Notes: generated from the letters alone by a model not told the origin. A stretch of DNA of 64,000 nt from an uncultured archaeon (GCA_963830445.1 CAWHMC010000015.1:3999-67998); one strand, 5' to 3'; shown: positions 3,275-62,139, counted from the stretch's first letter. Numbers and translations are program-made.

Positions 3275-3348
3275 CGCTTCAAGGCGCCAGCGCCGGCCTT
3301 CCACCAACGCATATATATCTGAAAAACCAGAACAGATAATCAGATTAC

Positions 3349-3822
3349 ATGGCAGCTAAAACCCTACAAACCGCAAAGCCGAAGATGCTGGTGATACAGA
3401 CGCCCAACGACCCTCTGCTCGCGCTCCGAGCAAGGATCGCGCATGCGGATAGCGCAAAGAATCCCATCCGTGGGGTTCTCAGGTATGAGAGCCGCGAACA
3501 GGTGACAGCGACGGGTACGAAGCGCTCACCACGCAAGGAGGCGGTGACCGCAGACGGCAAGCACATAACACTTATCCTAAGGAGCGAGGCCGCCTTCGGC
3601 TCCAGCTCGCCCGGCGAGCTGAGACTGGCCACGGTAAAGGCAAAGGAACTGCTGAGAAAAGTCTCAGAGGCGTTGAACGTGCGATGGAACGTCCAGCTAC
3701 GGCCGTCGGCCCGCGGGTTCTTCAGGCTCAAGGTCCACGGACTGGATGCGGACAAGGCGAGGGACTGCTCGAACTTCTGCGACCGGGTCTCGCCTGCATT
3801 CTCAGACCTGCTGCGAACATAA
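3349..3822 (+). CDS. Orphan paralog array member A
   Basis: TATATATC box 3312-3319; KPKMLV..NDPLL resembles member C; RGFFRLKV resembles B/E RGYL. Confidence 0.65.
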   Translation: MAAKTLQTAKPKMLVIQTPNDPLLALRARIAHADSAKNPIRGVLRYESREQVTATGTKRSPRKEAVTADGKHITLILRSEAAFGSSSPGELRLATVKAKELLRKVSEALNVRWNVQLRPSARGFFRLKVHGLDADKARDCSNFCDRVSPAFSDLLRT

Positions 3823-3895
3823 TCTTTATCCCGACAGCCGTCATAGGTTCTAGATAGTCGTAAATATCAGGAAATTCATAATATTGAATGATAAT

Positions 3896-4540
3896 ATGTC
3901 CGGCAAGAACAGTTTTGTCGTCAAGCACGTACCTGTTACTTTTAAGCAGTACCAGCTGGGCTTCATGCGCGTGGACCTGCGCGAGAGCGCTCCACGGCCG
4001 GAACTGAAGGCACCCGCCCTCGCCGAAGTGAACCCCGACGCCTGGCTGAAGGAGATGAAGCGCACGCTCCCGGCCCGGATGGAGAAGCTGTGCGATGCAG
4101 TACTGTCGACCGACCCTCCTGCAAATATCCAGTACGTCGCGCCGGGCATTCTCCAGAGCGAGTTCTCAAACGGCACCCTGACAGAGCGCGTGGCCTACGA
4201 CATGTCCCACATCTCCGATCGCACCATAGGCGAGGTGGTCGACAAACTTGGCCTGACGCTGGTAAATGTGGCCTGCGACCAGAGGAAGTCCGGCCTGCTG
4301 TGCAACTCGGAGGGCGCTTTCGACGTGATGGGCGGCCACATAATCCGCCACCTCTACAGCTCCTATGCGGCCCTGTTGAGGTACGGGAAGGTCCAGATGG
4401 TGGCCAACAAGCGCGGCTACCTGGGCCTCAGCATAAGCGACCCCGGGTATGACGATCCGGAGCAGGGCGAGCGACTCAAGGAGGAGCACATAAAATTCCT
4501 GAGGTCGACCCTCAAGGCGGCGCAGCGCCAGATTGCCTGA
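3896..4540 (+). CDS. Orphan paralog array member B
   Basis: TAAATATC 3861-3868; AYDMSH shared with C; KRGYLGL shared with E. Confidence 0.7.
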   Translation: MSGKNSFVVKHVPVTFKQYQLGFMRVDLRESAPRPELKAPALAEVNPDAWLKEMKRTLPARMEKLCDAVLSTDPPANIQYVAPGILQSEFSNGTLTERVAYDMSHISDRTIGEVVDKLGLTLVNVACDQRKSGLLCNSEGAFDVMGGHIIRHLYSSYAALLRYGKVQMVANKRGYLGLSISDPGYDDPEQGERLKEEHIKFLRSTLKAAQRQIA

Positions 4541-4620
4541 ATCAGTGTCTGATGCTTTGCGGCCTTGCGGCCAGATACGGTTAAATATCTAAAACACACC
4601 AATACAATCGTGAAATTACT

Positions 4621-5304
4621 ATGCACAGCAGCAAGCCAAGGTTCCTGGTAAAAGCGATAATCAACGACCCCAGCCTGCTCCGCCTGGGCATAGAGCAGGT
4701 CCGACTAATCGATGAGAAGCGACCGTCAGGTGATACGGGACGTACGGCTCCCATTACTCACAATCTCCCTCGGAACGAGGCACGGGAAAGCTACAGCTCG
4801 ATCCTAGGGCAGTACGACACGTTCGACGATGGCCAGGAGATAAAGGAGGACAAAACTCCCCTTAGAGTAATCCGCGGGACAAGGGCCAACAACTTCGAGC
4901 ACTGCACACTGCACGTCACGGCGAGCTATGACATGAGCCACAAGGACTTCGACGCTCTCGTCGAAATAGTCAGAACCCTGAGCAAGATAGCCACAAAATT
5001 CGCCGGCGAGGAGCTGCAGACCCTCTTCCGCGAATCAAAGAATGCCTACAGCGATGACGGCTTTTATGTTCAATCAGGAACGATAAAACCCGACACCTCG
5101 GACACCCAGGTCGCCGCAGTACTAGAGCGCGGCCACATAAAGATATTCGCGATAAGGGATATCTCTCCCAACCGGCAGAGCAACGACCGGATAAGCATCG
5201 AGGTGAACGACGTGCCCGTCAACGCACCTTCCAAGGAAGAGATATTTAATTTTGCAGAGAACGCGCTCTGCTTCTTCATGAGGCAACTGCCTCCCGGCAG
5301 GTAG
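4621..5304 (+). CDS. Orphan paralog array member C
   Basis: TAAATATC 4582-4589; SYDMSH and AAVLERGHI align with B. Confidence 0.7.
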   Translation: MHSSKPRFLVKAIINDPSLLRLGIEQVRLIDEKRPSGDTGRTAPITHNLPRNEARESYSSILGQYDTFDDGQEIKEDKTPLRVIRGTRANNFEHCTLHVTASYDMSHKDFDALVEIVRTLSKIATKFAGEELQTLFRESKNAYSDDGFYVQSGTIKPDTSDTQVAAVLERGHIKIFAIRDISPNRQSNDRISIEVNDVPVNAPSKEEIFNFAENALCFFMRQLPPGR

Positions 5305-5312
5305 GTGATGAG

Positions 5313-5756
5313 ATGACCCGAACAATAGCAGGCAGAGCGGAAGGCGCAAGGCAGAAGGCGCTGAACCCCGCATTCCTACTCCAGGCTCTTGCTCGCCGCG
5401 GAGTGCTTGAGCGCAAACCTCTGATAATTGAGAGCTTTGAGCTCCTGCTGACAGGCACCCCTGCATACAAGGCGGCCTACGACGGCGTCAGCGCAACAAT
5501 CGTCAACCGAACGGTAATACTCGAGGCCAGAACCGACAAGGAGCTGAACGCAACTCTCGCTGAAAAGGCCAAGATATTTATGCGGGACAGCACGCATGCG
5601 AAGGAGGCGCGACGCAGATCCGGGTTGAAGATGCGGAATGGTGTGATCACTCTCACCTACTTCGAAGTGGACGTGAAGAACGGGGAGCTGAAGCACTACG
5701 CGAAGCTCGCCGATCATCTGCTCGAAGCGCTTGCCAAGGCGCTCAGGCAAGCCTGA
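5313..5756 (+). CDS. Orphan hypothetical protein, possible array member D
   Basis: GGTGA RBS after member C stop; only weak similarity to A. Confidence 0.6.
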   Translation: MTRTIAGRAEGARQKALNPAFLLQALARRGVLERKPLIIESFELLLTGTPAYKAAYDGVSATIVNRTVILEARTDKELNATLAEKAKIFMRDSTHAKEARRRSGLKMRNGVITLTYFEVDVKNGELKHYAKLADHLLEALAKALRQA

Positions 5757-5808
5757 GTCTGGCGACTACTAATAAATATCTGAACCTATAGAGGGTTTCT
5801 GTGATGCG

Positions 5809-6387
5809 ATGACCAAGATTCAAAGGAAGCACGAAGTCAGGCAAGGATTTGACCTGAATGGGATAGGCCCCTTCTCCGACCTGCTGCGCCCGTACAAGTT
5901 CGAGAGCCAAGAGGATGCGATCCCCGGAGTGAAGAGAAGCGTCCTGGAGATACAATCGGGCAAGGCCTCCGTGTTCGAGTACGAGAGGTTGGGTGTCGTG
6001 CCCAACACGCTTCCAGAGCTAAAGAGGACAGTCACAGGGCTAAATGAGATCTTCGTGAAGATGGCAGCTTCAAACGGTCTATCCGCTCTCCTGAAAGAGG
6101 AGCCCTCCATACCTGCCTTCACGCCCCTGGACGGAATAATACGGGACGGCCTTTACGAAGAGGTCTACGAGCTCGCAGGCCACCTATTCATCAAGAACGG
6201 AAGGGCAATCACCCATGCCAGCAGGCGCGGCTATCTCCTCATAGACTTCAAGGACCTGGCCAGGGAAGAGATAGCTCCGGCAACAAGGCTGGCGAGAGAC
6301 GCACTGGCAGAGTTCACGAAAGAGGAGGAAGCAATGAAGACTCTCGAGTTCGTGAACAGCCTCACGCTGTTGGGGGCCAGCGACTGA
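5809..6387 (+). CDS. Orphan paralog array member E
   Basis: TAAATATC 5773-5780; LSALL..AF..NGRAITHASRRGYLLI aligns with B. Confidence 0.7.
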   Translation: MTKIQRKHEVRQGFDLNGIGPFSDLLRPYKFESQEDAIPGVKRSVLEIQSGKASVFEYERLGVVPNTLPELKRTVTGLNEIFVKMAASNGLSALLKEEPSIPAFTPLDGIIRDGLYEEVYELAGHLFIKNGRAITHASRRGYLLIDFKDLAREEIAPATRLARDALAEFTKEEEAMKTLEFVNSLTLLGASD

Positions 6388-6401
6388 ATCCGGCGCGAGA
6401 C

Positions 6402-7727
6402 TCACTTGCATCCAGCAGCGAACGTCTTGACCACACTGTCAAGCGCTGCGCCTCGCGGCTTCAGTTCGTAACCCACCTGCACCAGCGGCTTGTTTATCTT
6501 CATCAGCGTGCGCAGGTCGGTAGGCGTGGCCGAGATTACCACGTCACACTTCGCTTTGTTCACCGAGCTCTCCAGGTCCTTCACCTCCTTCGGGCTGTAT
6601 CCGACAGCCGGCATCTCAATGTTGAGCCGCGGATACTTGTCAAACACCTTTCGTATCTCTCCGACTGCAGAGTCTCTGGCCTTCGCGAATGAGCGGGCTT
6701 TGTACTCTTTTGCAGCCACCATCCCTGCTCCGATGCGCATCCCACCGTGGGTTATCGTTGGACCGTCCTCTATCACCAGCACGCGCCTGCCCTTTATCAG
6801 TTCGGGCTTGTCTGGCAGTACCACCGAATCCGCACAGATGACCGTGGCTTTCGGATTGATCTGCTTAAGGTCCTCCTTCAGCAGCGCAAGTTCGCTCTTC
6901 GTTGCGGAGTTCACCTTGTTTATTATTAGCACGTCCGCCATCCTCGCGCACGTCTCGCCGGGATAATAGGTAAGCTCGTTGCCGGCGCGCAGCGGGTCGG
7001 CGACGGTTATGAAAAGGTCGGGCTTGAAGAACGGCGCATCGTTGTTGCCGCCGTCCCAGAGGACCACGTCCGCTTCCTTCTCAGCCGCACGCAGTATGCG
7101 CTCATAATCTACACCAGCGTATACGATGAACTTGTTGCGTATGTGCGGTTCGTAATCCTCGCGCTCCTCGATCGTTGTCTTGTACCTGTCAAGGTCCTTT
7201 AGAGAGGCGAAGCGCTCGACCTGCTGGTCCTTGAGCACGCCATAGGGCATCGGATGACGCACGACAACCACGCGCAGCCCTAGTTTGCGCAGCATAAGTG
7301 CGATGTATCGCGAGGTCTGGCTCTTTCCGCAGCCGGTGCGCACGGCGCAGACAGCGATAACCGGTTTAGTAGACTTAATCATCGTGCGTTCCGGAGCGAC
7401 CAGCCAGAAGTCAGCTCCGGCTGCGTTTGCAATTGCAGCTTTGTGCATTACATCGGCGTAGGGCAGGTCGCTGTAGGCCTGTATGCAGATCTCTACCTCG
7501 AACTTCTTTATGAGGGCCGGCAGTTCAGATTCATCGTGTATCCGTATCCCCCTGGGATACAGCCGACCGCTCAGTTCCTTCGGGTAAATGCGATCGGAGA
7601 TGTAGGGTATCTGATTGGCTGTGAAGGCAACGACGTTATATGCCGGATCATCACGAAAGAGTACATTGAAGTCGTGGAAGTCCCTTCCTGCAGCACCAAT
7701 AATTATCACATTCTTTTTCTTTGACAT
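6402..7727 (-). CDS. arcE: COG2403 P-loop NTPase / cDPG-synthetase-like protein; probable arginine synthetase ArcE
   Basis: GAAGRDFHDFN, AVRTGCGKSQ, RHPMPYG, TIEEREDYE, WDGGNND, EDGPT..HGG; clustered with OTC and carbamate kinase. Confidence 0.75.
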   Translation of the reverse strand: MSKKKNVIIIGAAGRDFHDFNVLFRDDPAYNVVAFTANQIPYISDRIYPKELSGRLYPRGIRIHDESELPALIKKFEVEICIQAYSDLPYADVMHKAAIANAAGADFWLVAPERTMIKSTKPVIAVCAVRTGCGKSQTSRYIALMLRKLGLRVVVVRHPMPYGVLKDQQVERFASLKDLDRYKTTIEEREDYEPHIRNKFIVYAGVDYERILRAAEKEADVVLWDGGNNDAPFFKPDLFITVADPLRAGNELTYYPGETCARMADVLIINKVNSATKSELALLKEDLKQINPKATVICADSVVLPDKPELIKGRRVLVIEDGPTITHGGMRIGAGMVAAKEYKARSFAKARDSAVGEIRKVFDKYPRLNIEMPAVGYSPKEVKDLESSVNKAKCDVVISATPTDLRTLMKINKPLVQVGYELKPRGAALDSVVKTFAAGCK

Positions 7728-7789
7728 GAGAGCACCAAAGATAGATTCTATGGCTGTATCTAAATAAGTTCGCTGCCGTCAGATGCCTG

Positions 7790-8086
7790 TTAGTCAAGGA
7801 ACTTCTTTATCCCGAATCCGAACATCAGCACCATGAGCCAGAATCCGACCAGCAGCACCGGCAGCGCATAGCCGTCGTACAGGTTGAACACCACCAGGCC
7901 CGCCACGATTATCGTCGCAGCCATAAAGTTTGCCAGCCCGAAGAGTACGTTGGTTCTGGGCTTCGACTTTTGGCCGAATGGGCTCTTGAATATCCTACCG
8001 GCCGCGCCGAACGCGAAGTGCGGCATCCCATTGCCCAACAAGAACCCTATTATGAAATACCATATAAGAAAGAGTTCAGATGCCAT
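7790..8086 (-). CDS. Small three-helix membrane protein in the arc cluster
   Basis: ATG at 8086 after GAGGG, 4 nt past the arcC stop; three hydrophobic segments; NGMPHF..G..F.SPF. Confidence 0.65.
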   Translation of the reverse strand: MASELFLIWYFIIGFLLGNGMPHFAFGAAGRIFKSPFGQKSKPRTNVLFGLANFMAATIIVAGLVVFNLYDGYALPVLLVGFWLMVLMFGFGIKKFLD

Positions 8087-8090
8087 GCCC

Positions 8091-9017
8091 TCACACAATA
8101 GTTGTACCTGCCTTTCCCTCAAGCGCACCATCTGAATTCTCCAGCGAGGTAATGATGGCCTTGTTGCCCGTAGCTTTGACGAAAGCTACTACTGCCTCAA
8201 TCTTAGGCCTCATCGTCCCGTTCTCAAACTGGTTGCTTGCCAGATGGGCGTTGCACTCTCGAACGCTGACCTTTGTCAGCTTCTGCTGGTTCTTCTTCCT
8301 ATAGTTGATGAATACGTGGTCAACATCTGTAAGTATCATAAACCTATCGACATTCAGGCTCCTTGCAAGCAGCGACGATGCATGGTCCTTGTCAATCACC
8401 GCATCAACGCCTGTCAACACTCCTACTTCTCTCACCACCGGCACTCCGCCTCCGCCCGTACATACAACAATCTTTTTCTCCGCCACGAGCTTGCGTATTG
8501 TGTCCAGTTCAACTATCTCGAGAGGCATTGGTGACGGCACCACCCTCCTGTACTTCCCGTCCTCGCGCACCAGCGTCCATCCGAACTCCTTCGCCAGCTT
8601 GTCTGCTTCCCTTTTTTCATAGAACGGCCCCACGGGCTTCGCCGGGTTCTTGAAATGCGGATCCTTGCTGCTGACCACCGTTTGCGTAAGCACGCACGCT
8701 ACCTCCTTCGAGATTCCCGCCTTGCGCAGCTCGTTAGCGATCGCCTGCGAGATCATGTAGCCCATCATCCCCTGGCTCTCACCTCCGCACACATGCAGTG
8801 GCATCGTCGGAAGTCTCGATCTGGCAAGCTCGTAGCGCAGGAGGATGTCGCCCACCTGCGGGCCGTTGCCATGGGTTATCACAACGTTGTGGCCCTTCTT
8901 GATTATCTTCACTATGTGCCTGGCGGTGTTCACTATGTTCGCTTGCTGCTCCTCGTAGGTCCCCTTCTGGTGCTCTTTCAATATCGCGTTCCCGCCGAGA
9001 GCAATAAGTATGTTCAT
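8091..9017 (-). CDS. arcC: Carbamate kinase
   Basis: ALGGNA, THGNGPQVG, KPVGPFY, RRVVPSP, GGGGVPV, AVIDKD. Confidence 0.95.
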   Translation of the reverse strand: MNILIALGGNAILKEHQKGTYEEQQANIVNTARHIVKIIKKGHNVVITHGNGPQVGDILLRYELARSRLPTMPLHVCGGESQGMMGYMISQAIANELRKAGISKEVACVLTQTVVSSKDPHFKNPAKPVGPFYEKREADKLAKEFGWTLVREDGKYRRVVPSPMPLEIVELDTIRKLVAEKKIVVCTGGGGVPVVREVGVLTGVDAVIDKDHASSLLARSLNVDRFMILTDVDHVFINYRKKNQQKLTKVSVRECNAHLASNQFENGTMRPKIEAVVAFVKATGNKAIITSLENSDGALEGKAGTTIV

Positions 9018-9021
9018 CCTC

Positions 9022-9957
9022 TCACTGCTTCGGCTTCCTGCCGTTTATCGTGAAGTCCAGTACGGCTGCAGCACCATAGAGCTTGTTCTCCGCCTGCTGC
9101 CACGCCACCGAGTGCTTGCCCTCCAGGACCTGGTCAGTTATCTCGAGCCCGCGATGGGCCGGCAGGCAGTGCATCACGACCGCGTCTTTCTTCGCAAGCG
9201 CAAGGAGTTTGCCGTTGATCTGGTATCCCCTGAAGGCCTTCATGCGCCTCTCGGTCTCGCCCTCTTCGCCCATGCTCACCCAGACATCAGTATACAGAAC
9301 ATCTGCATCGCCCACCGCCTCCTTCGGATCGCGGACGACGTTTATCTTTGACCCGGTCCCCCTCGCGATCGCCTTTGCCTTCGCAACTATAGCTGCGTTG
9401 GGTTCGTAGCCCTTCGGGCAGGCGACGGTCGCGTTGGCTCCGCCGGTCGCGGCTGCGAGAAGCAGGCTGTTCGCGACATTGTCTCCGTCTCCAATGTAGG
9501 CGATATTCACGCCCTTTATTCTTCCCTTCGATTCATAAATCGTGAGCATGTCCGAGACGAGCTGCGTCGGATGCTCCAGGTCGCTGAGTCCGTTTATCGT
9601 TGGAAGTCCAGAATACTCATCGAACTGCACAACTGTTTTGTTTGAGAAGACGCGCGCCACTATCGCGTCAAGGTATCCTCCAAGAACCCGTGCGGTGTCC
9701 TTTATCGGCTCACCCCTCTTGAGTTGGAGCTCTGCCTCCGCGAGATATAATGGTTTCCCCCCGAGCCGCATCGCCGCGGCCTCGAACGAGGTGCGCGTGC
9801 GCGTCGATGGCTTCTCGAAAAGAAGGCCGACTATCTTGTTGTCGAGCAGGTGAATCTCTTCCCGGGATTTTATTATTTCCTTCAGGTTCTTGGCCTTTTG
9901 GAGAAGCGGAAGAAACTCATTGACAGAAATATCCGCGAATGATACTATTGATCCCAT
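9022..9957 (-). CDS. arcB: Ornithine carbamoyltransferase
   Basis: STRTR, HPTQ, DVWVSMG, HCLP motifs; catabolic role inferred from context. Confidence 0.93.
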   Translation of the reverse strand: MGSIVSFADISVNEFLPLLQKAKNLKEIIKSREEIHLLDNKIVGLLFEKPSTRTRTSFEAAAMRLGGKPLYLAEAELQLKRGEPIKDTARVLGGYLDAIVARVFSNKTVVQFDEYSGLPTINGLSDLEHPTQLVSDMLTIYESKGRIKGVNIAYIGDGDNVANSLLLAAATGGANATVACPKGYEPNAAIVAKAKAIARGTGSKINVVRDPKEAVGDADVLYTDVWVSMGEEGETERRMKAFRGYQINGKLLALAKKDAVVMHCLPAHRGLEITDQVLEGKHSVAWQQAENKLYGAAAVLDFTINGRKPKQ

Positions 9958-10043
9958 CCAAGCACCTGCACTCAGTACTACTCACTAATTAATATCTATA
10001 AACGCTACTTCCTGCCTGCCTTCACACATGGGGGCCACATTTG

Positions 10044-10078
10044 TTACGAAAGTTATGATAAAGTATTAACTTTGGTAA
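10044..10078. repeat. Inverted repeat downstream of the AbiE module
   Basis: TTACGAAAGTTA-N11-TAACTTTGGTAA, one mismatch. Confidence 0.65.
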
Positions 10079-10085
10079 TTTTTGT

Positions 10086-10673
10086 TCAACTTCTAATAAT
10101 CCTATTTACCTTATTCCTAAACGAAACCGGATACGCTCTTAGATACTTATCAAGCTTCTTCCTGTCAACCCTCCGTCTTAACTCCTTTATTACGTCATCT
10201 CTCAGATAATGCCTAAAGTAGACGAAGTCTATCAACGTCTTTTCATTATCTGATACTGGCACCCACATATCATAATACCTCATCAACTCGTATCCGAAGA
10301 GCAACTTCTTGCTTATGCTCTGGATGACGTAGTTGCTGTCACCAAACTTTCTCGCGCCGCGTCTGACTTTACACGAAGTTATTACTATCGGATTAGTCCC
10401 CTGTTCCCATAGTTTTCTTATCGTAAGTGCATTTTCCAACCCGTAGTAGAAGGGCCGGAAAGCAAACCCAACAACAATTATGTCGTCATGTACGGTGTAT
10501 ATCCCCCTAGTTATACGTCTTATATCACCCCTCTTAAGAAGATAATTGATCATACGTTTTAGATAGGCATCGCTTATCCCCCTGAGTCTGAGGACCGCTC
10601 GCAATTCATAGAGCTTAAACACTGGGGACCTTGGATCATCGAAATGCGTCCGCACGTAATCGACGTACTTCAT
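10086..10673 (-). CDS. AbiEi-like type IV TA antitoxin
   Basis: N-terminal wHTH (RITRGIY), YYGLENAL, VSDNEKTLID. Confidence 0.8.
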   Translation of the reverse strand: MKYVDYVRTHFDDPRSPVFKLYELRAVLRLRGISDAYLKRMINYLLKRGDIRRITRGIYTVHDDIIVVGFAFRPFYYGLENALTIRKLWEQGTNPIVITSCKVRRGARKFGDSNYVIQSISKKLLFGYELMRYYDMWVPVSDNEKTLIDFVYFRHYLRDDVIKELRRRVDRKKLDKYLRAYPVSFRNKVNRIIRS

Positions 10674-11326
10674 GCGAATCTCCCTCTTATGTGGTTGACC
10701 ATGTTCTTGAATGACGGAACGGGCCCCTGATATATTATCGCCTTCAGATCACTTTCATTGACTGGTTCTTCTATCTTGGAGAGAAACGAGAGCACTTCTT
10801 TACGCAGTGCATTTTTGTTCTCAATATAATCGCTCAGCACATACATATCATAAATATCCCGGATGAACCGTCTATCCGAGTAGGCTGCTATTTTCTCCTC
10901 CATCAGTTTGTCTGGAGGGAGTGTAAGGACATCCGTATAGGTGCCATCCACCTTCTCAAACCTTGTTGCTATAGGTTTCATGCCTTTCTTGACGTGATTA
11001 ATCTCTACTTTTAGGTATGTATCGCCAAGTGAGAATGCCATGAACACGAGGTGGCCCGTGTCTTTTATCTTTTCCAGTCTAGCCCCGTACTCCGATGCGG
11101 CACTTTCTATCTTCGCTTTGATTGATAGAAGGCTCACGTTCGTACCTAGGTAGATGTCTATATCATTCGAGAAACGATTTCCTGAAAAGCAACGCCAGAT
11201 TGCGGTTCCACCGTGTAGCACCACGTTGCTCTCCACGTTATAAAGTATGTCTATCACCGTATCTTGGAACGTCGCTATCTCTTGATACTCCCGTTTCTTG
11301 AGAAGCTTGATTATTGGCAATTTCAT
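10670..11326 (-). CDS. AbiEii-like nucleotidyltransferase toxin
   Basis: GGTA..RFSNDID, EKIAA..R...RDIYD; ATGA overlap with the antitoxin. Confidence 0.85.
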   Translation of the reverse strand: MKLPIIKLLKKREYQEIATFQDTVIDILYNVESNVVLHGGTAIWRCFSGNRFSNDIDIYLGTNVSLLSIKAKIESAASEYGARLEKIKDTGHLVFMAFSLGDTYLKVEINHVKKGMKPIATRFEKVDGTYTDVLTLPPDKLMEEKIAAYSDRRFIRDIYDMYVLSDYIENKNALRKEVLSFLSKIEEPVNESDLKAIIYQGPVPSFKNMVNHIRGRFA

Positions 11327-11330
11327 ATAT

Positions 11331-11364
11331 TTCCCTAGGTTACATTATAATGTAACTTAGGTAT
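11331..11364. promoter_or_regulatory. Palindromic operator upstream of the AbiE module
   Basis: TTCCCTAGGTTA-CATTATAATG-TAACTTAGGTAT; 28-bp core 11334-11361 is near-perfectly palindromic and lies between the TATA-like box and the ATG. Confidence 0.7.
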
Positions 11365-11413
11365 ATAGATATAAATAGCTTTCTAGGGCTATCATCCCTT
11401 CCTTACCTAGGGG

Positions 11414-12679: not shown

Positions 12680-12688
12680 ATAATCACA

Positions 12689-12997: not shown

Positions 12998-13004
12998 AAA
13001 ACCA

Positions 13005-13938: not shown

Positions 13939-13944
13939 GAACGC

Positions 13945-15793: not shown

Positions 15794-15919
15794 TAATTCA
15801 CCGATTATACGATAGAACCGACATCTTTTTATATATATCGTCGTAGTACCGTCAGCAAACTACAAATGTCCTCGTCAAAATCGTATTTAAAGGCTACCAT
15901 GCATTATGTATTTGATTTA

Positions 15920-16665
15920 ATGATCGAAATAAAACTGCAAAGCGAACAGGACCTCAAGGGTTACACCGTGATAGAAACCTTCCCCGGAGTCGGCCTGGTA
16001 GGGCCCATGGCCGGCAGCTACATAATCGAGAAGCTCGCGATGGAGCCCATCGGATACATAGTCAGCGAGGGCTTCCCGCCGATAGCATCCATACACAACT
16101 CCACGCCGATGCACCCGGCGCGCATCTACAAGTCGCAGAAGTACAAGCTCCTCATCTTCCTCTCGGAGTTCGCGATCCCGCCGCAGCTGGTCTACCCTCT
16201 GGCGGATGAGCTCATGGCCTTCGCGCGCAAGTACGAGATTCAAGAATCGTCTCCGTGGGCGGCATGCCTTCCCAGAAGCCGAAGGAGAGCATCTACGTCA
16301 CTACCACCGACAAGGAGATACTAAAGAAAGCTATCAAGGCCGGCATAAAGCCGATCACCGAAGGGGTGGTGGCCGGAGTGAGCGCTGCCATACTGGTGAA
16401 GGCCTCGGACTACGACATCTCCGCACTCGACGTGATGGTCGAGGTGGACCCGCAGATCACCGATCCCATCTACGCCGAGCTGGCGATCACCGGGCTGAAT
16501 AAGCTGCTGGATACGGACATCGACCTGGCCGAGCTGGACAAGGAGGCGAAGGCTGTCGAAGCCAAGATACGCGAGCTGATGAGCAAGGTGAAGACCTCCC
16601 ACGAGCTCGCAGGGGGCAGCAGCGGAAGCGGCGGCGGAGACACCGGACCATCGATGTACGCGTGA
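15920..16665 (+). CDS. PAC2 proteasome assembly chaperone family protein (frameshift near 16245, likely error)
   Basis: FPGVGLVG N-terminal motif; continues in another frame as IVSVGGMP..GVVAGVSA..DP..A..SMYA. Confidence 0.85.
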
Positions 16666-20119: not shown

Positions 20120-20833
20120 ATGGAGATTGCGGGCTTCCAGCGCGTAAGCCTGATCGACTATCCGGGCCGCATGGCCACGCTGCTCTTTGTCACGGGCTGC
20201 AACATGCGCTGTCCCTTTTGCCACAACGCGGACCTGGTCCTGAAGAACTACAAGAAGCTTACCGTTTATCCGGAGCAGGAAGTGCTGCAGAAGCTGAAGG
20301 AGAGCAAGGCGTTCGTGGATGCGGTGCAGATAAGCGGGGGCGAGCCGACCCTCTGGAGCGACCTGCCCCAGTTCATCAGGAAGTGCAAGAAGCTGGGCTT
20401 CTCCGTGAAGCTCGACACCAACGGGACCAACCCGGCCATGGTGGAGAAGCTGCTGAAGGAGAAGCAGCTGGACTACGTCGCCATGGATATCAAGGCGCCT
20501 CTCAACAACGAGCGCTACTCCAAGTCCATAGGCGTCAAGAGCGACGCTCTCCTGGAAAAGATAAACCAGACCATAGATCTGCTGCTCAATTCAAAGATAG
20601 ACTACGAGTTCCGCACCACCCTGGTCCCGGGCCTGGTCTCGGTTAGCGACGTGATGGACATCGCCGTCCGCATACGGAACGCCAACGCCTATTACCTTCA
20701 GCAGTTCAAGTCCGCGAACACCCTGGATCCCGCGCTCCGCAGGGTGGAGCCCTACTGGAACGAGGTGCTCTACGAGCTGCGTGAGAAGATAGTCAAGCAG
20801 AACCTGGTCAAGAAGTGCGAAGTGCGCGCCTGA
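20120..20833 (+). CDS. nrdG: Class III RNR activating radical-SAM enzyme
   Basis: SLIDYPG, GCNMRCPFCHN, SGGEPT, KLDTNG, YEFRTT. Confidence 0.92.
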   Translation: MEIAGFQRVSLIDYPGRMATLLFVTGCNMRCPFCHNADLVLKNYKKLTVYPEQEVLQKLKESKAFVDAVQISGGEPTLWSDLPQFIRKCKKLGFSVKLDTNGTNPAMVEKLLKEKQLDYVAMDIKAPLNNERYSKSIGVKSDALLEKINQTIDLLLNSKIDYEFRTTLVPGLVSVSDVMDIAVRIRNANAYYLQQFKSANTLDPALRRVEPYWNEVLYELREKIVKQNLVKKCEVRA

Positions 20834-20873
20834 AAAATATAAATATCAGGGGAAATCAAGAGTAAGTGTTACC

Positions 20874-21467
20874 ATGGCAGTCAAAGAGAGGACGCAAACA
20901 ACACAGACGCCCAGGGTCAGCACCATCCCAGAGTTTCATGAACTGCTGAAAGTGCAGGGGAGTAAACTTAAAGAATTTTTCCTCGGGGATATCCTATTCC
21001 GCCGGCGCAGGAATCGCAACGGCACCGATCCCGGCTTCGTCGCACGGGGCGCGGATCTTGCGGATACGGTTACCGTACGCTACGGGGCCCTGGTATTTCC
21101 AGGAGCAAAGCTAGAGAACTACGTGGTAGTAGACAAGTTTTCCGTAGTCCACGGCAACACGCTTCTCGAAACGGGCGTCAGACTGGGTGAGCACTCAGAG
21201 GTTCACCCCCACACCATAATCAGGACCGGCGTGCTGGTCAGAGACCTGGCCTACATATACGGCGGCACTGCGAACAAGCCCACCACCATCGGAGACTGGA
21301 CGGTCGTCGGCTACGGCGCGAATGTGGGGAAGAGCACGACCACCGGAAAGGGCGTGAAGATCGGGAGGGGCGCGCACGTAACCGATTGCGCAAGGGTGCC
21401 AGACGGGCAGAAGATTAACGACGCGCAGACGTTCTCAGAGACCGAGCTCAAGAATGCAGCGCGCTAG
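20874..21467 (+). CDS. Left-handed beta-helix (hexapeptide repeat) protein
   Basis: Hexapeptide periodicity (TTIGDWTVVGYGANVG..VKIGRGAHV); TAAATATC at 20840. Confidence 0.7.
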   Translation: MAVKERTQTTQTPRVSTIPEFHELLKVQGSKLKEFFLGDILFRRRRNRNGTDPGFVARGADLADTVTVRYGALVFPGAKLENYVVVDKFSVVHGNTLLETGVRLGEHSEVHPHTIIRTGVLVRDLAYIYGGTANKPTTIGDWTVVGYGANVGKSTTTGKGVKIGRGAHVTDCARVPDGQKINDAQTFSETELKNAAR

Positions 21468-24172: not shown

Positions 24173-24557
24173 CTATTTTCGCAGCACAGAGACCAGTTTC
24201 TCGAGCGCTTCGTCGGTTGATGTTCTAATTGTAGTTTCCAGCTTCCTAAGCTGGACGGACTCAGCAATATGATTCAGGCCCAGGCCGCCACAGGATGCGC
24301 TGGCGACCCAAAGCCACCGGGCAGCCTCGTTATCCCCGAATACCATCGCCGCACCGGCAAACGCCACTCCAGCGGCCAAAAAAGAGCGATCCGTAGATCC
24401 TATTGCCTGCGGTAAAATCGTCGAGCTTCTTGTAGAACTCCTGCCTATTCTGGTCTCCCATCAGGCTCATGGGCCCGCCGCGGTAGGGGAGCGCATCCCT
24501 CCTGCTGGCATCCAGAAACGTCTGTATTATATTTGCCTTTCTGTGTTGGGTTATCAT
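24173..24557 (-). CDS. Orphan two-TM protein, probably one frameshifted gene
   Basis: Two overlapping ORFs joinable near 24380; TATATATC box about 36 nt upstream. Confidence 0.4.
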
Positions 24558-24692
24558 CCTGCCACAATATCCTTACCGAATTCCTGATATATAAAATCGA
24601 CGATTCAAGTCCAAAATCATTGCAGTGGACATATGCCTACAACATGTCAAGATTGCCTTTTTGTAGCCCTATAACTATCTACCGCACCCGTT

Positions 24693-25199: not shown

Positions 25200-25447
25200 A
25201 TGGTAAAATATATGATAGCGGAACAGCTCGTGGGCAAGGAAGTCGTAACTAACGATGGATTCGATCTCGGAAAGTTCATAGATGCTGAAGTGAGTGAGAT
25301 CAGGTAAGCTCAACTCTCTGGTAGTTGAGCCTAACGTGGACAGCGAACTGGTAAGCAAGCTTACGTCAAGGGAGGAAACTCGACCGTACAGTACGCGAGC
25401 GTCTGGCAGTGAACGACTTCATAGTCGTGGACAGGAAGGGCTTGTAA
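25200..25447 (+). CDS. PRC-barrel protein, CdpB-like (frameshifted in this sequence)
   Basis: MVKYMIAEQLVGKEVVTNDGFDLGKFID ... GKLNSLVVEP ... AVNDFIVVDRKGL across frames; absent from the ORF track. Confidence 0.7.
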
Positions 25448-25462
25448 TGTAATGGTGATTCT

Positions 25463-26164
25463 ATAATAATTGCCGGCGGAGACGAGGCCGGTCGCGGCGC
25501 AGTGATGGGTCCGCTAGTGATAGGCGCGGTCAGCATGAGCAAGGGAAAGGAGGGGAAGCTCTCGCGCATAGGCGTTCGGGACTCGAAGATGCTCACACCA
25601 AGAAGAGACGGTTCCTTTACGATGAGATCTACTCCCTGGCCGAGGAGGTCCAGGTGTACAAGATACTGCCCGCCGAGATAAACGAGGCGATGCGCAACCA
25701 CATCTCCATAAACGAGCTCGAGGCGCTGAACTTGCGCGATGATTGATACATTCACATGCGCCCACCCGCATCTTCCTGGATTCGCCGGACGTGATCTCCG
25801 ACAGGTTCGGGGTGCGGGTCAGCTTCTTCGCGAAGCGACAGCTGCTTGCGTCGGGGGTGAAGCGCACGCGAGTCAAGGGCGCAGGCCCGGCATCCCGATA
25901 ATCGCGGAGCACAAGGCGGATGCGCGCTACCCGGTCGTTTCAGCGGCCAGCATAATAGCGAAGGTGGTGCGCGACCAGGAGATTGAACGCATAACTGACA
26001 AGATAGGGATGGACATAGGCTCCGGCTACCCTTCCGATGTTTACACCATAAATGCGATACGCGCAAGCCTGGTGAACGGAAAGATGGCCCCATACCTGCG
26101 CGACTATTGGCAGACGCTGAAGAACGTGCGCCAGCTGAAGATGGACGAGTTCCTGGAAGAGTAG
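25463..26164 (+). CDS. rnhB: Ribonuclease HII (several indels)
   Basis: GGDEAGRGAVMGPL, GVRDSKML, EHKAD..YPVVSAASIIAKV.RD, GSGYPSD; start uncertain. Confidence 0.85.
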
Positions 26165-40115: not shown

Positions 40116-40670
40116 TTAAGCCTGCGTACCCGTTGCCAGGAACCTCTCCTCCCTGAAGGCGCGCCTGGTGAGCTCCTTGAGATGTGCCAATACGCTCCCA
40201 CGCGTCCGTTCATAGTGCGAATTCCTATCGTTGCTCGGCATCTCCCAGTACTCGTTGCTCAGCTGACCCATTTCGACAGGGAAGCGCATGTTTGCTACGT
40301 CGATGTTCATATCCGACGAGATAATAAGGTGGAAAAGCGCCCCATAATTCCTTTTGAAGATCACAAACTTCCTGATATTGAGTTCGTTATCCTCCCTACT
40401 AAAATTAAAGGAGTGGGGCTCCAGCAGTACCTGCCTGCCCCCTATTGAGAACTGGGAGAGGACGAAGTCGGGGGTGTAAACTATCCCGCCGCTGTCGCCT
40501 ATCTTGAAGCTGAGTGGGGCATAGTGCGTCCGTATCCCCAGGTCCAGAAGGCACTCCCTATATACTCTCTCGATCGGGCTAGCAACCCTGGTCTCTCTTG
40601 AGAGCAACGTGCCTTCGTTCAATGGGATACCGCGCCGCACTTCACCAACGTTTCTTACCGTGACCGCCAT
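40116..40670 (-). CDS. PD-(D/E)XK-like nuclease-fold protein
   Basis: SPIER..LGI..Y, YTPDFVL, LLEPH; TAAATATC box upstream. Confidence 0.55.
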   Translation of the reverse strand: MAVTVRNVGEVRRGIPLNEGTLLSRETRVASPIERVYRECLLDLGIRTHYAPLSFKIGDSGGIVYTPDFVLSQFSIGGRQVLLEPHSFNFSREDNELNIRKFVIFKRNYGALFHLIISSDMNIDVANMRFPVEMGQLSNEYWEMPSNDRNSHYERTRGSVLAHLKELTRRAFREERFLATGTQA

Positions 40671-50132: not shown

Positions 50133-50270
50133 AGAATCACGATTGAATCATAAGATAATAAGGTATATAAAGCTTCTGTTTTAGTGGACATATAATACAC
50201 ATGCACAGCAATCAAATAAAAAATTCATAACCAATAAATATCTGTCCCCCACTTTCTCTAGTACAAGTAC

Positions 50271-50684
50271 ATGACCACCCTACAACACTCGTTCCGCGTT
50301 CCTCCAGCACGCAAAGGCGTTTTGACAAAAGACAACTCAGGGCATGGCGCATATACTTCATCCTACATTATCTCTTTTCCTAAGGGAGAAAGCATCAGGG
50401 CGAGGGACGCCCAGCGCTTCATGCAGGTAGAGCTCAATGAGACCCCCACGCTCAAGAAAAGCGTCGAGATCCAGGTGCAGGTAGTGGCCGATATCATCCA
50501 TGTACGGCTTGTCGGCCGCACCAACGGGAACGACTCGGCTGCCGACAAGGCGATCCATGCGTTTGTGGAGGAGACCGGCGTAATGCTCGATTATCGCTAT
50601 CCCCTGGACTCGCCCCATAGGATTATCGGGGAACAGACGCGCGCAGGCGCAGCTACCTACTCTGCTCTTCGGCGCTCTCTCTAG
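50271..50684 (+). CDS. Orphan hypothetical protein
   Basis: TAAATATC at 50235, 36 nt before the ATG. Confidence 0.55.
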   Translation: MTTLQHSFRVPPARKGVLTKDNSGHGAYTSSYIISFPKGESIRARDAQRFMQVELNETPTLKKSVEIQVQVVADIIHVRLVGRTNGNDSAADKAIHAFVEETGVMLDYRYPLDSPHRIIGEQTRAGAATYSALRRSL

Positions 50685-51069
50685 CGGCCTCGTCGGCCAT
50701 CAGCCTAGAGTTGTAGTAGTTGTAGTAGGTGCGCCACTGCAGCTCGGCCGCGTTCCAGGTCACCAGCTCCATCCTCCACAGGTTCGTCTGCAGGCTCGCC
50801 GCTCCTCCCTGTAGCGTGTACTTCGCCAGCTCCATGTTGCCCGCCATGTTGAGCGTCATCTCCCTCGCCAGCTCCTGGTCGCCCATGAGCTGCGCGCGCA
50901 TCTCCTTCACCTGCTGCTTCTCCTCTGGTGGGGTCCTGCGCTCGAGCGGCTTAAGCGCCGTGAGCTTCTGCTCACGCTCATCCTCGTCTTCTTCTCCCCT
51001 GCGCAGCAGGGGCAAAAATGCGACAGAGCCAGCCGCATTCTGCCGCTTGCGCTCCAGTAACGCCACCAC
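50653..51069 (-). CDS. Orphan helical protein
   Basis: TATATATC box about 38 nt upstream on minus. Confidence 0.55.
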   Translation of the reverse strand: MVALLERKRQNAAGSVAFLPLLRRGEEDEDEREQKLTALKPLERRTPPEEKQQVKEMRAQLMGDQELAREMTLNMAGNMELAKYTLQGGAASLQTNLWRMELVTWNAAELQWRTYYNYYNSRLMADEAARESAEEQSR

Positions 51070-51120
51070 GCCCTTACCGATATCAATTGTGCGTTTTTTG
51101 ATATATAAGGTTAGTCTACG

Positions 51121-51151
51121 AAAAAACAGGGCTCGCCGTTTGGACGGCGGG
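51121..51151 (-). terminator. Hairpin plus U-tract downstream of mtnA
   Basis: Minus strand CCCGCCGT-CCAA-ACGGCGAG then CCCTGTTTTTT. Confidence 0.55.
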
Positions 51152-51217
51152 ATTAAATATCAGTAAATTCATATTTGCCTTATACGATTTATTTAGTTTC
51201 GGAAGACCGGAGGGCAA

Positions 51218-52300: not shown

Positions 52301-52313
52301 GGATTCCTCAACT

Positions 52314-52700: not shown

Positions 52701-52780
52701 TTCATCATCCCAATTACCTTATTCTATCCATACCTATAAAATACTCATCGACATATAATCGGAACGCTTAAAGTGAATTC

Positions 52781-54948: not shown

Positions 54949-54951
54949 TTC

Positions 54952-57315: not shown

Positions 57316-57324
57316 GGCAACCCA

Positions 57325-57471: not shown

Positions 57472-57479
57472 CCCCGCAC

Positions 57480-58217: not shown

Positions 58218-58343
58218 ACAATAATCAATATAATGTATTTATTGCTTGCGTTTGCCCGATTTATGCCCGCCTTTCGCCGTTGACGTGTGGTATAGCAACA
58301 AATTTAAACTATCCCAGGCAAATATGCTTAGCAGCGTGCTCAC

Positions 58344-59120: not shown

Positions 59121-59138
59121 CAATCAGATACTGTTTTC

Positions 59139-61943
59139 TTACTCCCTTCCATGCTCTGCCATGAATGCCAGGTATCGTCCGATGATTGCCGGCGTGGCAG
59201 TCGGCCGCGTGTTCTTTATTATCGCGTTTATGTCCGCCGTCGTGATCATCTTTGTGCCCTCTTCAGGCACCTTGTCCGCTTCGTGGCCTATGAGCGAGTC
59301 CTCCAGCGCATGCATCTTCGCCTCGCGGCAGATGTTTGCAATATCCGCGCCGGTATACCCTGTGGTGACCGCTGCGAGCTTGTCGTAGTCCAGATCGGCA
59401 GCAACCGGTGCATTCTTCAGGTTTATCTTGAACAGGGTTACTCGTGCCTCCTTGTCCGGTGGCGAGGCGTAGACCAGCTTGTCCAGGCGACCCGGCCGGA
59501 TGAGCGCGGGCTCTATCGCGTCGGGACGGTTCGTCGCGCCCACTATCACCAGTCCGCCCGCCTCCTTGGCCTGGTCGAACTCGCGCAGGAACTCGGCTGT
59601 GAGCTGCACCATCCCCTCGCTCGCCGTGTCCCGGTTGGGCACCAGCGAGTCGATCTCGTCTATGAATAGTATGCTGGGGATGTTCTCCTTCGCCCGGAAG
59701 AAGTTCTCCTTTAGCTTGCGCACCGCGTTCTCGTAGCCCTCCTTGCTCAGGTCGGCGCCGGAGACGCTGATCATCGTAAGTCCCTCGGTGGCGTTGGCGA
59801 TCCCGCGCATGAGCATGGTCTTGCCGCAGCCGGGCGGCCCGAAGAGGAGTATGCCGCTGATGTTCTTCACGTCGTACTCCTTCATCATCTCAGGGTGCGC
59901 GAGCGGGATCGTTATCGCCTCGTTGAGCGCCCTCTTCGCATCCGCCATGTTGACCACATCCTCGATCTTCACGGCCTCGTCGGGCTTCTGCACCGGCTCG
60001 CCGTTGAGCCTGCGCTCGTAGTCGAGCTTGAACGCGTCGTACTCCTCCAGCTGCTCGTAGGTGGTGGTGGGCTTGGTCTGCTTGATCATCTCCACCAGGT
60101 GGTCGGTGTCGATGCGCATCGCCTTCGACTGCTTCACCGCCTCGTTGCCCACCCGCGTCGCTGCCTCCCGGCAGATGTTCGCGATGTCCGCTCCGGAGAA
60201 GCGCTTGGTCATCCTGGAGAGCTTGTCGAAATCGATGTCGTCGCTCATGGGGTAGAGCTTGGAGTAGTGCTTGAAGATCGCGACTCGTCCCGCATCATCG
60301 GGCAGGGGCATGTATATCACCCGGTCGACTCGGCCGGGCCTCATGAATGCGGGATCGATTAGCTGTGGCGTGTTAGTCGCACCCACCACTACGACCCCCT
60401 CCATCTTCTGGAACCCGTCCATCTCCGCCAGGAGCGTCGAGAGCATCTGGCGCTGAAGGTCGTCGGCAGAGGCGTCGCGCCTCCGGGCCAGGCTCTCCAC
60501 TTCGTCGAAGAAGAGAAGGGTCGGAGTGTGGGCCTTGGCCACGTCGAAGATTTTGGAGAGCGTCTTCGCGCTCTCGCCCTCCTGCGCTGAAAGGATGGTG
60601 GAGGCCTTGACGTAGAGGAAGCGGGCGCGTATCTCGTTGGAGAGGGCGCGCATGAGCATGGTCTTGCCCGTGCCCGGGGGCCCGAACAGCAGGATGCCCT
60701 TCGCGGGCTTGATGTTGTAGGCGCCCTCGATCTCCTTGTGCTCTATGGGCTGCAGGATGGCCTCGCGAAGCTCCTCCTTGGTGTGCTCGTAGTTGCCGAT
60801 GTCGTCCAGGGTCTCCCTGCTTCCGGAGGTGAGGTCCTCAAAGGCCTCGCCGAACTTGCCCATGAAGTCCTGCTTCATGACGTCAAGCGCGCGCACGATG
60901 TCGATGTCGTTGAGCTCCAGCAGGACCAGGACGAGGGGAGTTATCAGGAAGCCAGCAAGCATGTACGGGCTGATGGCGCTGTTGAAGAAGTAGGCGAGCC
61001 CGATGTAGGTGGCGAGTATGGCGAACGAGAAGAGGCTGGCGACGGTGCCCTTGAACCCGGACCTGCTGCTCATGACCCTCTGGGCGATGGCGAAGACCAC
61101 GATGAGCCAGACCGCGAGCTGCACGCCGATGGCAGTTATGTTGTATGCTATGGAAAGTATGCACAGGTATATCACGTACTCCAGCGAGCCCGCGATGTTT
61201 AGCGTGAGGAAGTTCACCACGGATGTGCCGAACGCGCCCGGCAGCTGCGTTATCGAAGGCGCTGGTTTGAGCGCGGTGATGAAAGCGGAGACGGAGCTAG
61301 TGCCGACCACCGCCTTGAAGCCCAGGGCGTTGAAGGCGATGGGGGCGGCGATGGGCAGGGCCATCATGGTCGCGAGCATGGGGAGCATCACCACGGCGAA
61401 GGCGGTGGCTATCGCCCCGCGCTTGAGCCCGATGTACAGGATCCCGATGACCAGGGCGGGGATCTCCAGGAAGAAGCCCAGGAAGGAGAAGGGCAGCGCG
61501 ATGAGCGCGTAGGCCAGGGTGATGATCCGGTAGTGCTTGTAGCCGAAGACCAGGGAGGCCACCAGGAAGATGCAGTAGAGGAGCGCGATGAGCGGGGCCT
61601 GGAACAGGTACACGGGCAGCGAGACGAAGAGCAGCACCATCAGCCCAGCGAGCGGATGGTAGCGGGTAAGGAGGAAGACGATAACGGCGAATACGGCGAT
61701 CAGCTCGACGGGGTAGAAGGGGAAGGCGATGACGATGCTCAGCAGCGCAAAGGTGGCGAGGATGGAGTCGGGGAAGTACTTGTTGCTCATGAACTCGTGG
61801 ATCTCCTCCTTGAGCCAGTAGTAGGTCATCGGAGTGGAGATGCGCGCCGTGGGTTTCTTCGCAGGCTCCGGCTTCGCCGCGCTAGGTGCCGCTTTCTTTT
61901 TAGCGCCGTCCTTTGCCTTGCTTGGTGGTGGAGTTCCCGGCAT
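59139..61943 (-). CDS. Polytopic membrane protein fused to tandem AAA+ domains
   Basis: About 9-10 hydrophobic segments, [40 protein letters not shown]. Confidence 0.9.
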   Translation of the reverse strand: MPGTPPPSKAKDGAKKKAAPSAAKPEPAKKPTARISTPMTYYWLKEEIHEFMSNKYFPDSILATFALLSIVIAFPFYPVELIAVFAVIVFLLTRYHPLAGLMVLLFVSLPVYLFQAPLIALLYCIFLVASLVFGYKHYRIITLAYALIALPFSFLGFFLEIPALVIGILYIGLKRGAIATAFAVVMLPMLATMMALPIAAPIAFNALGFKAVVGTSSVSAFITALKPAPSITQLPGAFGTSVVNFLTLNIAGSLEYVIYLCILSIAYNITAIGVQLAVWLIVVFAIAQRVMSSRSGFKGTVASLFSFAILATYIGLAYFFNSAISPYMLAGFLITPLVLVLLELNDIDIVRALDVMKQDFMGKFGEAFEDLTSGSRETLDDIGNYEHTKEELREAILQPIEHKEIEGAYNIKPAKGILLFGPPGTGKTMLMRALSNEIRARFLYVKASTILSAQEGESAKTLSKIFDVAKAHTPTLLFFDEVESLARRRDASADDLQRQMLSTLLAEMDGFQKMEGVVVVGATNTPQLIDPAFMRPGRVDRVIYMPLPDDAGRVAIFKHYSKLYPMSDDIDFDKLSRMTKRFSGADIANICREAATRVGNEAVKQSKAMRIDTDHLVEMIKQTKPTTTYEQLEEYDAFKLDYERRLNGEPVQKPDEAVKIEDVVNMADAKRALNEAITIPLAHPEMMKEYDVKNISGILLFGPPGCGKTMLMRGIANATEGLTMISVSGADLSKEGYENAVRKLKENFFRAKENIPSILFIDEIDSLVPNRDTASEGMVQLTAEFLREFDQAKEAGGLVIVGATNRPDAIEPALIRPGRLDKLVYASPPDKEARVTLFKINLKNAPVAADLDYDKLAAVTTGYTGADIANICREAKMHALEDSLIGHEADKVPEEGTKMITTADINAIIKNTRPTATPAIIGRYLAFMAEHGRE

Positions 61944-61999
61944 AATTTTTATACTGGCATGATAACGTATAAATAGCTGCCCGGCGATATTATCAGCAT

Positions 62000-62107
62000 C
62001 CCGCTGTAGCTCAACGGCAGAGCGATCGGCTGTAGTCTGAAGAAGCTTCTTGGAGGTTTTTCAAGAAGGATACCGATAGGCTGGGAGTTCAAATCTCCCC
62101 AGCGGGA
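62000..62107 (+). tRNA. tRNA-Tyr(GTA) with canonical intron (about 62036-62071)
   Basis: CCCGCTG/CAGCGGG acceptor (C1:G72), ATCGG-CTGTAG..A-CCGAT, GGGAG-TTCAAAT-CTCCC. Confidence 0.9.
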
Positions 62108-62139
62108 AACATAAATATCTCAAAAGCAGTTGTACTTAC

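Follow-up and report, generated by a model that had tools for sequence, protein, structure and literature searches.

The stretch of DNA analysed here, 64,000 nucleotides (nt) of one strand (GCA_963830445.1, CAWHMC010000015.1:3999-67998; hereafter the window), comes from an uncultured, tiny and host-dependent Micrarchaeota archaeon whose genome (G000; 732 kb, 65% complete, 54% GC) carries repeated copies of the box TAWATATC (IUPAC code) ahead of genes with no match in Pfam, here called orphans. Our analysis suggests, with a probability of roughly 0.55, that this box is the core of a promoter subclass composed of an element recognized by TFB (BRE; RNAANN), the TATA box NWTAWATA and the flank TCWRAA, that the subclass has normal register and spacing and is enriched before soluble, fast-evolving genes, and that it serves as a group switch operated by a single basal TBP/TFB machinery. 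Tests outside the window and in a second family of the order confirmed a real, genome-wide promoter subclass, a variant of the archaeal core promoter that differs from housekeeping promoters and is absent from membrane orphans.

Genes of G000 were predicted with a self-trained coding model, and the lead set comprised 497 genes of at least 70 amino acids (aa) with at least 50 nt free upstream, within the fetched stretches; 18 of these, located beyond C5:120500 in a bacterial-looking stretch, were excluded from every test, leaving 479. Residues 1-300 of each lead gene were scanned against Pfam (E 1e-6), and a box was assigned to a gene when TAWATATC lay 24-50 nt ahead of an in-frame start; because housekeeping genes often carry long leaders, a wider criterion of up to 200 nt upstream was also applied. 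Membrane and signal segments were called by hydropathy on the Kyte-Doolittle scale.

The genome contains 121 copies of TAWATATC and 39 of the reversed pattern. The box preceded 35 of 226 Pfam-less but only 6 of 253 Pfam-bearing lead genes (odds ratio (OR) 7.5, p 2.6e-7), and the control motif TTTAWA in the same 479 genes preceded 44 and 51, respectively. Outside the window the association persisted (28/198 Pfam-less versus 4/230 Pfam-bearing operon-leading genes; OR 9.3, p 1e-6), with no bias in TTTAWA (40/198 versus 44/230). An earlier note on this DNA had proposed the box as a mark of orphan genes, to be abandoned if the motif proved equally frequent upstream of core genes; given the strong difference between the two gene sets, the box cannot simply be equated with the consensus TATA box, and a distinct promoter variant tied to orphan genes is supported. 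Under the wider criterion, the box was found in 37 of 156 soluble orphans and 16 of 253 Pfam-bearing genes (OR 4.6), and 12 of 13 box-bearing open reading frames (ORFs) outside the lead set, scanned apart and uncounted, had no Pfam match. The element is shared by separate transcription units, 41 leading genes in G000 and 31 in 400 kb of a relative from another family (G250). Sites occur on 15 of the 16 G000 contigs, with 7 adjacent pairs where 3.3 were expected (p 0.04) and no clustering in G250, and orthologous promoters retained the box in a DUF218 gene (G000 and G005) and in one orphan family. A dense group of box-bearing orphans surrounds two kinase-like genes at G000:C8 ~2700-11400 (L046).

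Within the window, TAWATATC occurs 18 times, compared with 1.94 expected from shuffled sequences, none of which (0/100) reached 18. The ten boxes that had been listed before (Table 1) all lie at the coordinates and at the spacing of 28-42 nt to the start codon originally given. Their description as preceding almost exclusively orphan or diverged genes applies to the eight targets without a Pfam match, but not to the hexapeptide-repeat protein at 20874 or the NUDIX hydrolase at 62140, and the copy at 51154 indeed has no sense gene behind it, facing instead the 3' end of a minus-strand gene. This plus-strand copy, paired with the minus-strand box within 51096-51165, possibly yields a small RNA. 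TTTAWA-type boxes, cited as typical of core genes, were recovered at the Lon-like gene (TTTAAATA) and cdc48 (TATTTATA), but the sod box reads TTTATTA. Seven further copies were found, two before conserved genes and five inside or antisense to genes (5248-, 5580-, 10851+, 30376+ and 55665+).

Expectation maximization (EM) on upstream regions returned gnAAng-NWTAWATA-TCWGAA for soluble orphans and gnAAnn-TWTWTAWA-nnTT for Pfam genes together with membrane orphans, with the same BRE offset and the same two distance peaks in the models of both groups. A purine-rich BRE lies directly ahead of the 8-bp A/T box, its AA is at an equal offset in both classes (in EM and in neutral-anchor matrices), and box-to-start-codon distances peak at 28-30 and 35-38 nt, matching those of core genes. 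The shared BRE register therefore places TAWATA at TATA positions 3-8 and TC at the start of the downstream flank. When sites were aligned with a flank-neutral anchor, the groups differed at TATA position 7 and at flank positions +1 to +6, and not at TATA positions 1-2: T at +1 was present in 39 of 61 soluble orphans versus 37 of 115 Pfam genes, C at +2 in 35 versus 34, a purine at +4 in 42 versus 52, and A at +6 in 33 versus 29. Membrane orphans (n = 33) resembled the Pfam group, and the leave-one-out area under the curve (AUC) for class separation in G000 was 0.76. Up to 200 nt upstream, the extended motif TAWATATCWR was found in 28/156 soluble orphans versus 5/253 Pfam-bearing genes, whereas TAWATATCWT showed no enrichment (6/156 versus 7/253); housekeeping flanks read NN-TT or TC-TT, and those of the orphan class TCWRAA. 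As described in PMC8131849 and PMC11065993, the canonical archaeal core promoter (BRE, TTTAWATA and an A/T-rich BREdown) has in common with this element the AA of the BRE, the 8-bp box and the spacing to leaderless or short-leader starts. However, its flank is an A/T-rich TT, whereas the element described here has TCWRAA, loose box positions 1-2, rigid positions 3-8 and a bias toward one class of genes.

The targets of the box in G000, with a median length of 170 aa, are soluble proteins: a membrane or signal segment was called in 1 of 35, versus 69 of 191 other orphans, which gives no support to a classical form of the export programme suggested by the earlier note. That note had also described short basic, Thr-rich N-terminal tails. 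To measure composition, residues 2-20 were compared with the rest of each protein, with starts picked alike in all groups and four genomes pooled; the excess of S/T/N/Q/P amounted to +0.084 in box targets (n = 69), whereas other non-conserved genes reached +0.035 (n = 120, p 0.002) and conserved ones 0.000 (n = 104), although in G250 alone the difference from other non-conserved genes was not significant (p 0.13). The tails are thus modestly enriched in Thr and in S/T/N/Q/P, but their K+R excess equals that of other non-conserved genes (p 0.99), and basic tails were rejected as a property of the class. No consistent C-terminal bias was detected in G000 or G250 (1 of 48 comparisons below p 0.05). 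Recognizable domains among the targets are varied (ankyrin, TPR, NUDIX, MazG, mTERF, methyltransferase and DUF218), and plain core genes, such as those encoding eRF1 and a diphthamide enzyme, are also included. The GC content at third codon positions (GC3) is lower in box genes (0.64 versus 0.75). A scan of 47 G000 proteins, comprising 46 box targets plus a single neighbour transcribed with one of them, gave no PHROG match for 45, and a single-sequence fold of the 3896 protein was unusable (predicted local distance difference test (pLDDT) 33). The 40670 protein, previously listed as an orphan, has no Pfam match but belongs to a family that occurs in 48 of the order's 151 genomes and whose N-termini cannot be aligned; it matches a T7 endonuclease I-like profile (E 1e-4), its predicted model is confident (pLDDT 89), and a Foldseek search of this model gave no match at E <=0.001, the best rows being PD-(D/E)xK nucleases at E 0.002-0.005. 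An expanded family of AsnC-type helix-turn-helix (HTH) proteins of about 480 aa has the 8-mer upstream of all three G250 members (L069:7114-8592, L070:5745-7214 and L081:14849-16294), and copies in G108 (L100, L104) are without it.

In G250, the box preceded 27 of 165 non-conserved soluble versus 3 of 106 conserved leading genes (p 3e-4), conserved meaning a BLAST match within partial data of five genomes; EM returned the same consensus, and 24 of 28 non-conserved targets lacked a Pfam match at E 1e-3. In G104, an ORF lay 27-46 nt behind 25 of the first 30 of 45 strict sites, and 19 of the 24 ORFs scanned had no Pfam match. Among intergenic sites with an ORF, 7/9 in G113 and 5/7 in G246 lead to non-conserved soluble proteins. 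The link was absent in two A+T-rich genomes, each assigned to another order: G096 (32% GC; 2/74 versus 1/68) and G103, where 26 of 29 sites lie inside genes. Counts of the pattern and its reverse across 251 genomes are unreliable in such A+T-rich genomes and were therefore not used as proof of range. The promoter class is apparently a trait of this order, with a very uneven size.

In the mechanism that we propose, TBP, in the form of half-size subunits, would bind the 8-bp box, and TFB would bind the BRE in the ordinary way. The six-base flank would sit where the first cyclin repeat of TFB contacts DNA downstream of the TATA box (BREdown; PMC8131849), and because of this location it would alter initiation through TFB itself, or else via one hypothetical flank-reading factor. 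The box genes would then form a regulon for one life-cycle state, which we infer to be the simplest reason why dozens of unrelated lone genes share a flank avoided by housekeeping and membrane genes. The element likely marks a separately controlled gene set, and co-regulation of the box genes is slightly more probable than not. This signature selects a coherent subset of genes without an assigned function, providing a testable list and a handle on candidate host-interaction proteins, and it draws attention to the flank downstream of TATA as something that may set the class of an archaeal promoter, here within a lineage with a TBP built from halves. No description of a Micrarchaeota or DPANN promoter motif was present in the full texts of papers among the matches listed (best 20 of 54 and best 15 of 715). 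Much of the gene content of Micrarchaeota lacks an assigned function; 29% of the genes of one cultured member are reported to have no arCOG (PMC8975820).

Several observations weigh against the group switch. The exact 8-mer precedes about a fifth of soluble orphans (34/156), and it is also present, followed by T, in the strong housekeeping promoters of EF-1a, TFB and the L30e operon (TTTAAATATCTT), so that the promoter classes overlap. Class separation across genomes was weaker (AUCs 0.60-0.63), the link was weak in G108 (4/55 versus 2/132, p 0.06) and not significant in G005, from the same genus as G000 (5/85 versus 3/85), and an ORF began 24-50 nt behind only 9 of 26 sites in G113 and 8 of 24 in G246, one of them a diphthamide gene. 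The nuclease family of the 40670 protein has the exact box at 5 of 30 loci, with a near variant at several more, and we identified no flank-reading protein. To these are added the many frameshift-split genes of the G000 assembly, the origin of its gene calls and starts in our own caller, and the partial data behind the definition of conserved genes in the relatives.

The overlap with housekeeping promoters would also be consistent with a strong constitutive promoter, in which the rigid TAWATA-TC is one end of a single continuum and marks lone, highly expressed genes without shared regulation. The 16 of 253 Pfam genes with a copy of the box within 200 nt, the high expression of many hypothetical genes said to occur in a cultured Micrarchaeon (PMC8623467) and the core that viral early promoters share with highly expressed host genes (PMC11065993) point in the same direction. 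We nevertheless consider this explanation unlikely, although it deserves attention: highly expressed housekeeping promoters continue with T-rich sequence and the orphan class with WRAA, the enrichment before orphans is confined to the WR form of the extended motif, and membrane orphans carry the core type. The nearest counterpart in the literature is the early promoter common to archaeal viral anti-defence genes (SIRV2 and others; PMC11065993), one regulatory sequence in which a BRE-TATA element and its flank mark numerous small hypothetical genes that are unrelated to each other and can thereby be located, and the box genes might likewise derive from viruses or mobile elements that brought their own early-type promoter. 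Four tandem orphans of the window, each with its own box, the lower GC3 of the box genes and the T7 endonuclease I-like protein would fit such an origin. However, the sites in G000 are chromosomal and scattered, barely clustered, over nearly all contigs of a cellular genome; almost all of the proteins lack a PHROG match, no Aca8-like regulator was found, no common 3'-end element was apparent by eye, and a second family shows this consensus again, whereas the motifs of viruses vary from one virus to the next (PMC11065993), all of which makes a viral source highly improbable. An artefact of A+T-rich gaps with spurious ORFs behind them might be suggested by the mostly intergenic location of the reversed pattern (28/39) and by the excess inside genes in G103. 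The imbalance between pattern and reverse (121 versus 39) arises in a genome of 54% GC, though, with a fixed distance and BRE register and targets with a median length of 170 aa, one of which has a confident fold and a family; positional and class tests refuted the artefact for G000, G250 and G104, and its probability is negligible.

Haloarchaea select promoters via multiple TBPs and TFBs, and the order examined here resembles them in having two TBP-domain genes and, in some genomes, extra TFB-like genes. A half-TBP dimer combination or a TFB paralogue that prefers the box would thus be another explanation. TBP was present only as single-repeat halves in 31 of 31 genomes of the order (loci such as L001-L004 and L007-L026), with two separate half genes in 25 of 30 relatives; in G000, at 65% completeness, only half A (C15:94827-95171; L065:6928-7272, minus strand) and one TFB were found. 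The halves form two clades, A (49 sequences) with Ala/Leu and B (9) with Val/Ile at the equivalents of yeast TBP residues 203 and 205, which set TATA position 2 in the TBPm3 variant (PMC1636458). At the equivalent of yeast residue 196, A has Lys and B Arg; the acidic TFB-binding stirrup is kept in both, and at the TATA-position-2 residues the resemblance to Pyrococcus TBP is to its N-lobe for half A and to its C-lobe for half B. Half A of G000 alone (1/49) has Ala in place of Thr at the equivalent of yeast T215. Lone TBP domains in other archaea (single-domain TbpA) accompany a full TBP (PMC3597702), whereas here the halves replace it, and no split TBP is described in the single paper listed as a match. 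Sites from two-half genera have A at TATA position 2 in 36 of 66 cases, those from a one-half genus in 1 of 16, and G250 encodes two full TFBs and a further four proteins that have the cyclin repeats of TFB and lack a zinc ribbon; in one of the four, the repeats are fused to a preceding HTH-like N-terminus (TFB and TFB-like loci L078:4694-6516, L082:10270-11277, L079:14358-15398, L074:6760-7242 and L076:14086-16698).

Despite these features, a different basal factor is improbable. The motif excess did not differ (p 0.18) between 25 one-half genomes, a sample from a single genus (372 versus 120 control), and 20 genomes of the family with at least two TBP matches (320 versus 163). The class exists with half A alone, so the choice of half-TBP dimer was rejected as a requirement for it, as was a tie between CA ahead of the box and half B: this variant was likewise no different (p 0.23), faded across 45 genomes, and gave way mostly to TT, TA or CT in the two-half genomes G104 and G005. 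With the neutral anchor, the two G000 classes cannot be told apart by TATA positions 1-2, and strong motif excess occurs in G104, G065 and G217, each with one TFB gene. Because the class persists with one half-TBP and one TFB, unlike in haloarchaea, an alternative basal factor is not required, and neither the alternative TFB invoked by the earlier note nor a need for a second TBP was borne out. Extra TFB-core matches were detected in G013, G017 and G231, and a box-bearing 165-aa gene of G104 (L334:1536-2030) has a weak TFIIB zinc-ribbon match (E 8e-5). The sigma-70-like gene of the bin, of the extracytoplasmic function (ECF) type, was also rejected, given its location in a GC-richer part of contig C5 (~120500-145280; L040, L041) that also contains MarR, pirin and repeat proteins and looks like bacterial DNA joined into the contig.

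The group switch could serve a host-directed programme. Legionella Dot/Icm substrates under PmrA/CpxR control constitute an effector regulon of host-dependent bacteria, and the box genes are similar in that a single motif is shared by a large number of proteins that are soluble, fast-evolving and unrelated to one another, including ones with ankyrin or TPR repeats, in a genome with a VirB4-like locus. They differ in that the Legionella motif is an upstream activator site and here it is a core-promoter variant; moreover, the promoters of the machine are without the motif, and translocation is putative. The locus encodes a DUF87/AAA_10/P-loop_TraG (VirB4/HerA-like) ATPase (C13:150508-152016) beside six genes with 6-8 predicted membrane segments, none of which has a relevant Pfam match. 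It extends over G000:C13:150508-162801 (L060, L061), and the ATPase shares 49-68% identity in five genomes from four families. Substrates of type IV secretion carry a charged or hydrophobic C-terminal translocation signal. A host-directed role fits the soluble, fast-evolving and polar-tailed targets, this locus, and the published contact structures between Micrarchaeota-type cells and their hosts (PMC11329633, PMC8975820). It is less easily reconciled with the core-type promoters of the VirB4-like locus, the equal presence of its ATPase in two genomes without the promoter class, the lack of a charged or hydrophobic C-terminal signal in the G000 and G250 targets, and PMC8975820, in which no cytoplasmic contact was seen. 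We regard as tentative the possibility that the host cell is where these products act, their N-terminal tails being polar and some of them having ankyrin, TPR, NUDIX or nuclease domains. More doubtful still is the proposal that a flank-defined Micrarchaeales promoter class switches on tens of fast-evolving, soluble and polar-tailed effectors passed into the host at contact sites, possibly via a VirB4/VirB6-like machine found throughout the phylum. If true, a sequence rule would for the first time allow DPANN host effectors to be listed, and the class would amount to a switch comparable to a sigma factor that needs no alternative basal factor.

Table 1. Promoter elements, target genes and counter-examples in the window. 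Distances are counted between the box's first base and the start codon.
Positions	Strand	Feature	Box (first base) and distance (nt)
3304..3323	+	Full promoter element, textbook member of the class: BRE (AA), TATA box CATATATA (3310-3317), flank TCTGAA	3312, 37
3349..3822	+	Soluble orphan gene, 157 aa; without a match in Pfam or PHROG, and no relative in a 5.8-billion-protein set within the lengths searched	
3853..3872	+	Promoter element, flank TCAGGA	3861, 35
3896..4540	+	Soluble orphan gene, 214 aa; the same 5.8-billion-protein set returns only itself within the lengths searched	
4574..4593	+	Promoter element, flank TCTAAA	4582, 39
4621..5304	+	Soluble orphan gene, 227 aa	
5313-5756	+	Promoterless orphan, 8 nt behind the 4621 gene; probably co-transcribed	
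5765..5784	+	Promoter element, flank TCTGAA	5773, 36
5809..6387	+	Soluble orphan gene, 192 aa; without a match in Pfam or PHROG, or a usable one in the Atlas	
20832..20851	+	Promoter element, flank TCAGGG	20840, 34
20874..21467	+	Hexapeptide-repeat protein with Thr/Gln-rich N-terminal tail; this query gave no match in 10 further genomes of the genus	
24582..24601	-	Promoter element, flank TCAGGA	24593, 36
24330..24557	-	Short orphan ORF of 75 aa with a low coding score	
40701..40720	-	Promoter element, flank TCTAAG	40712, 42
40116..40670	-	Fast-evolving PD-(D/E)xK-fold, T7 endonuclease I-like protein; invariant E34, P67-D68-F69 and E84	
50227..50246	+	Promoter element, flank TCTGTC	50235, 36
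50271..50684	+	Soluble orphan gene, 137 aa	
51096..51115	-	Promoter element, flank TCAAAA; forms a back-to-back pair with the 51154 copy	51107, 38
50653..51069	-	Soluble orphan gene, 138 aa, GTG start	
51146..51165	+	Promoter-like copy, no sense gene behind; would read antisense into the 3' end of the 51218-52300 gene	51154
62104..62123	+	Promoter element, flank TCTCAA, leaderless spacing	62112, 28
62140..62634	+	NUDIX-domain gene, Pfam-bearing target	
15824..15843	+	Counter-example: box then TCGT, ahead of conserved PAC2 gene	15832, 34 (ATG)
1212..1231	-	Counter-example: housekeeping-type box then TCTT, ahead of PALP enzyme gene	1223, 92

Frameshifts, probably assembly indels, split many conserved genes in the window (15866-16665 and 25366-26164) and in many other places of G000. 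Three AbiEii genes were found in this small genome, one in the window (10086-11326) beside a likely partner gene and the others at L045:6369-7022 and L065:17076-17510, together with two Fic genes in the window (1248 and 47928). The genome also encodes a protein with an Fe-only hydrogenase large-subunit domain (L039:6451-7350), a RelA/SpoT-region protein (L037:12611-13510) and an ice-binding-like protein (L046:16320-17219).

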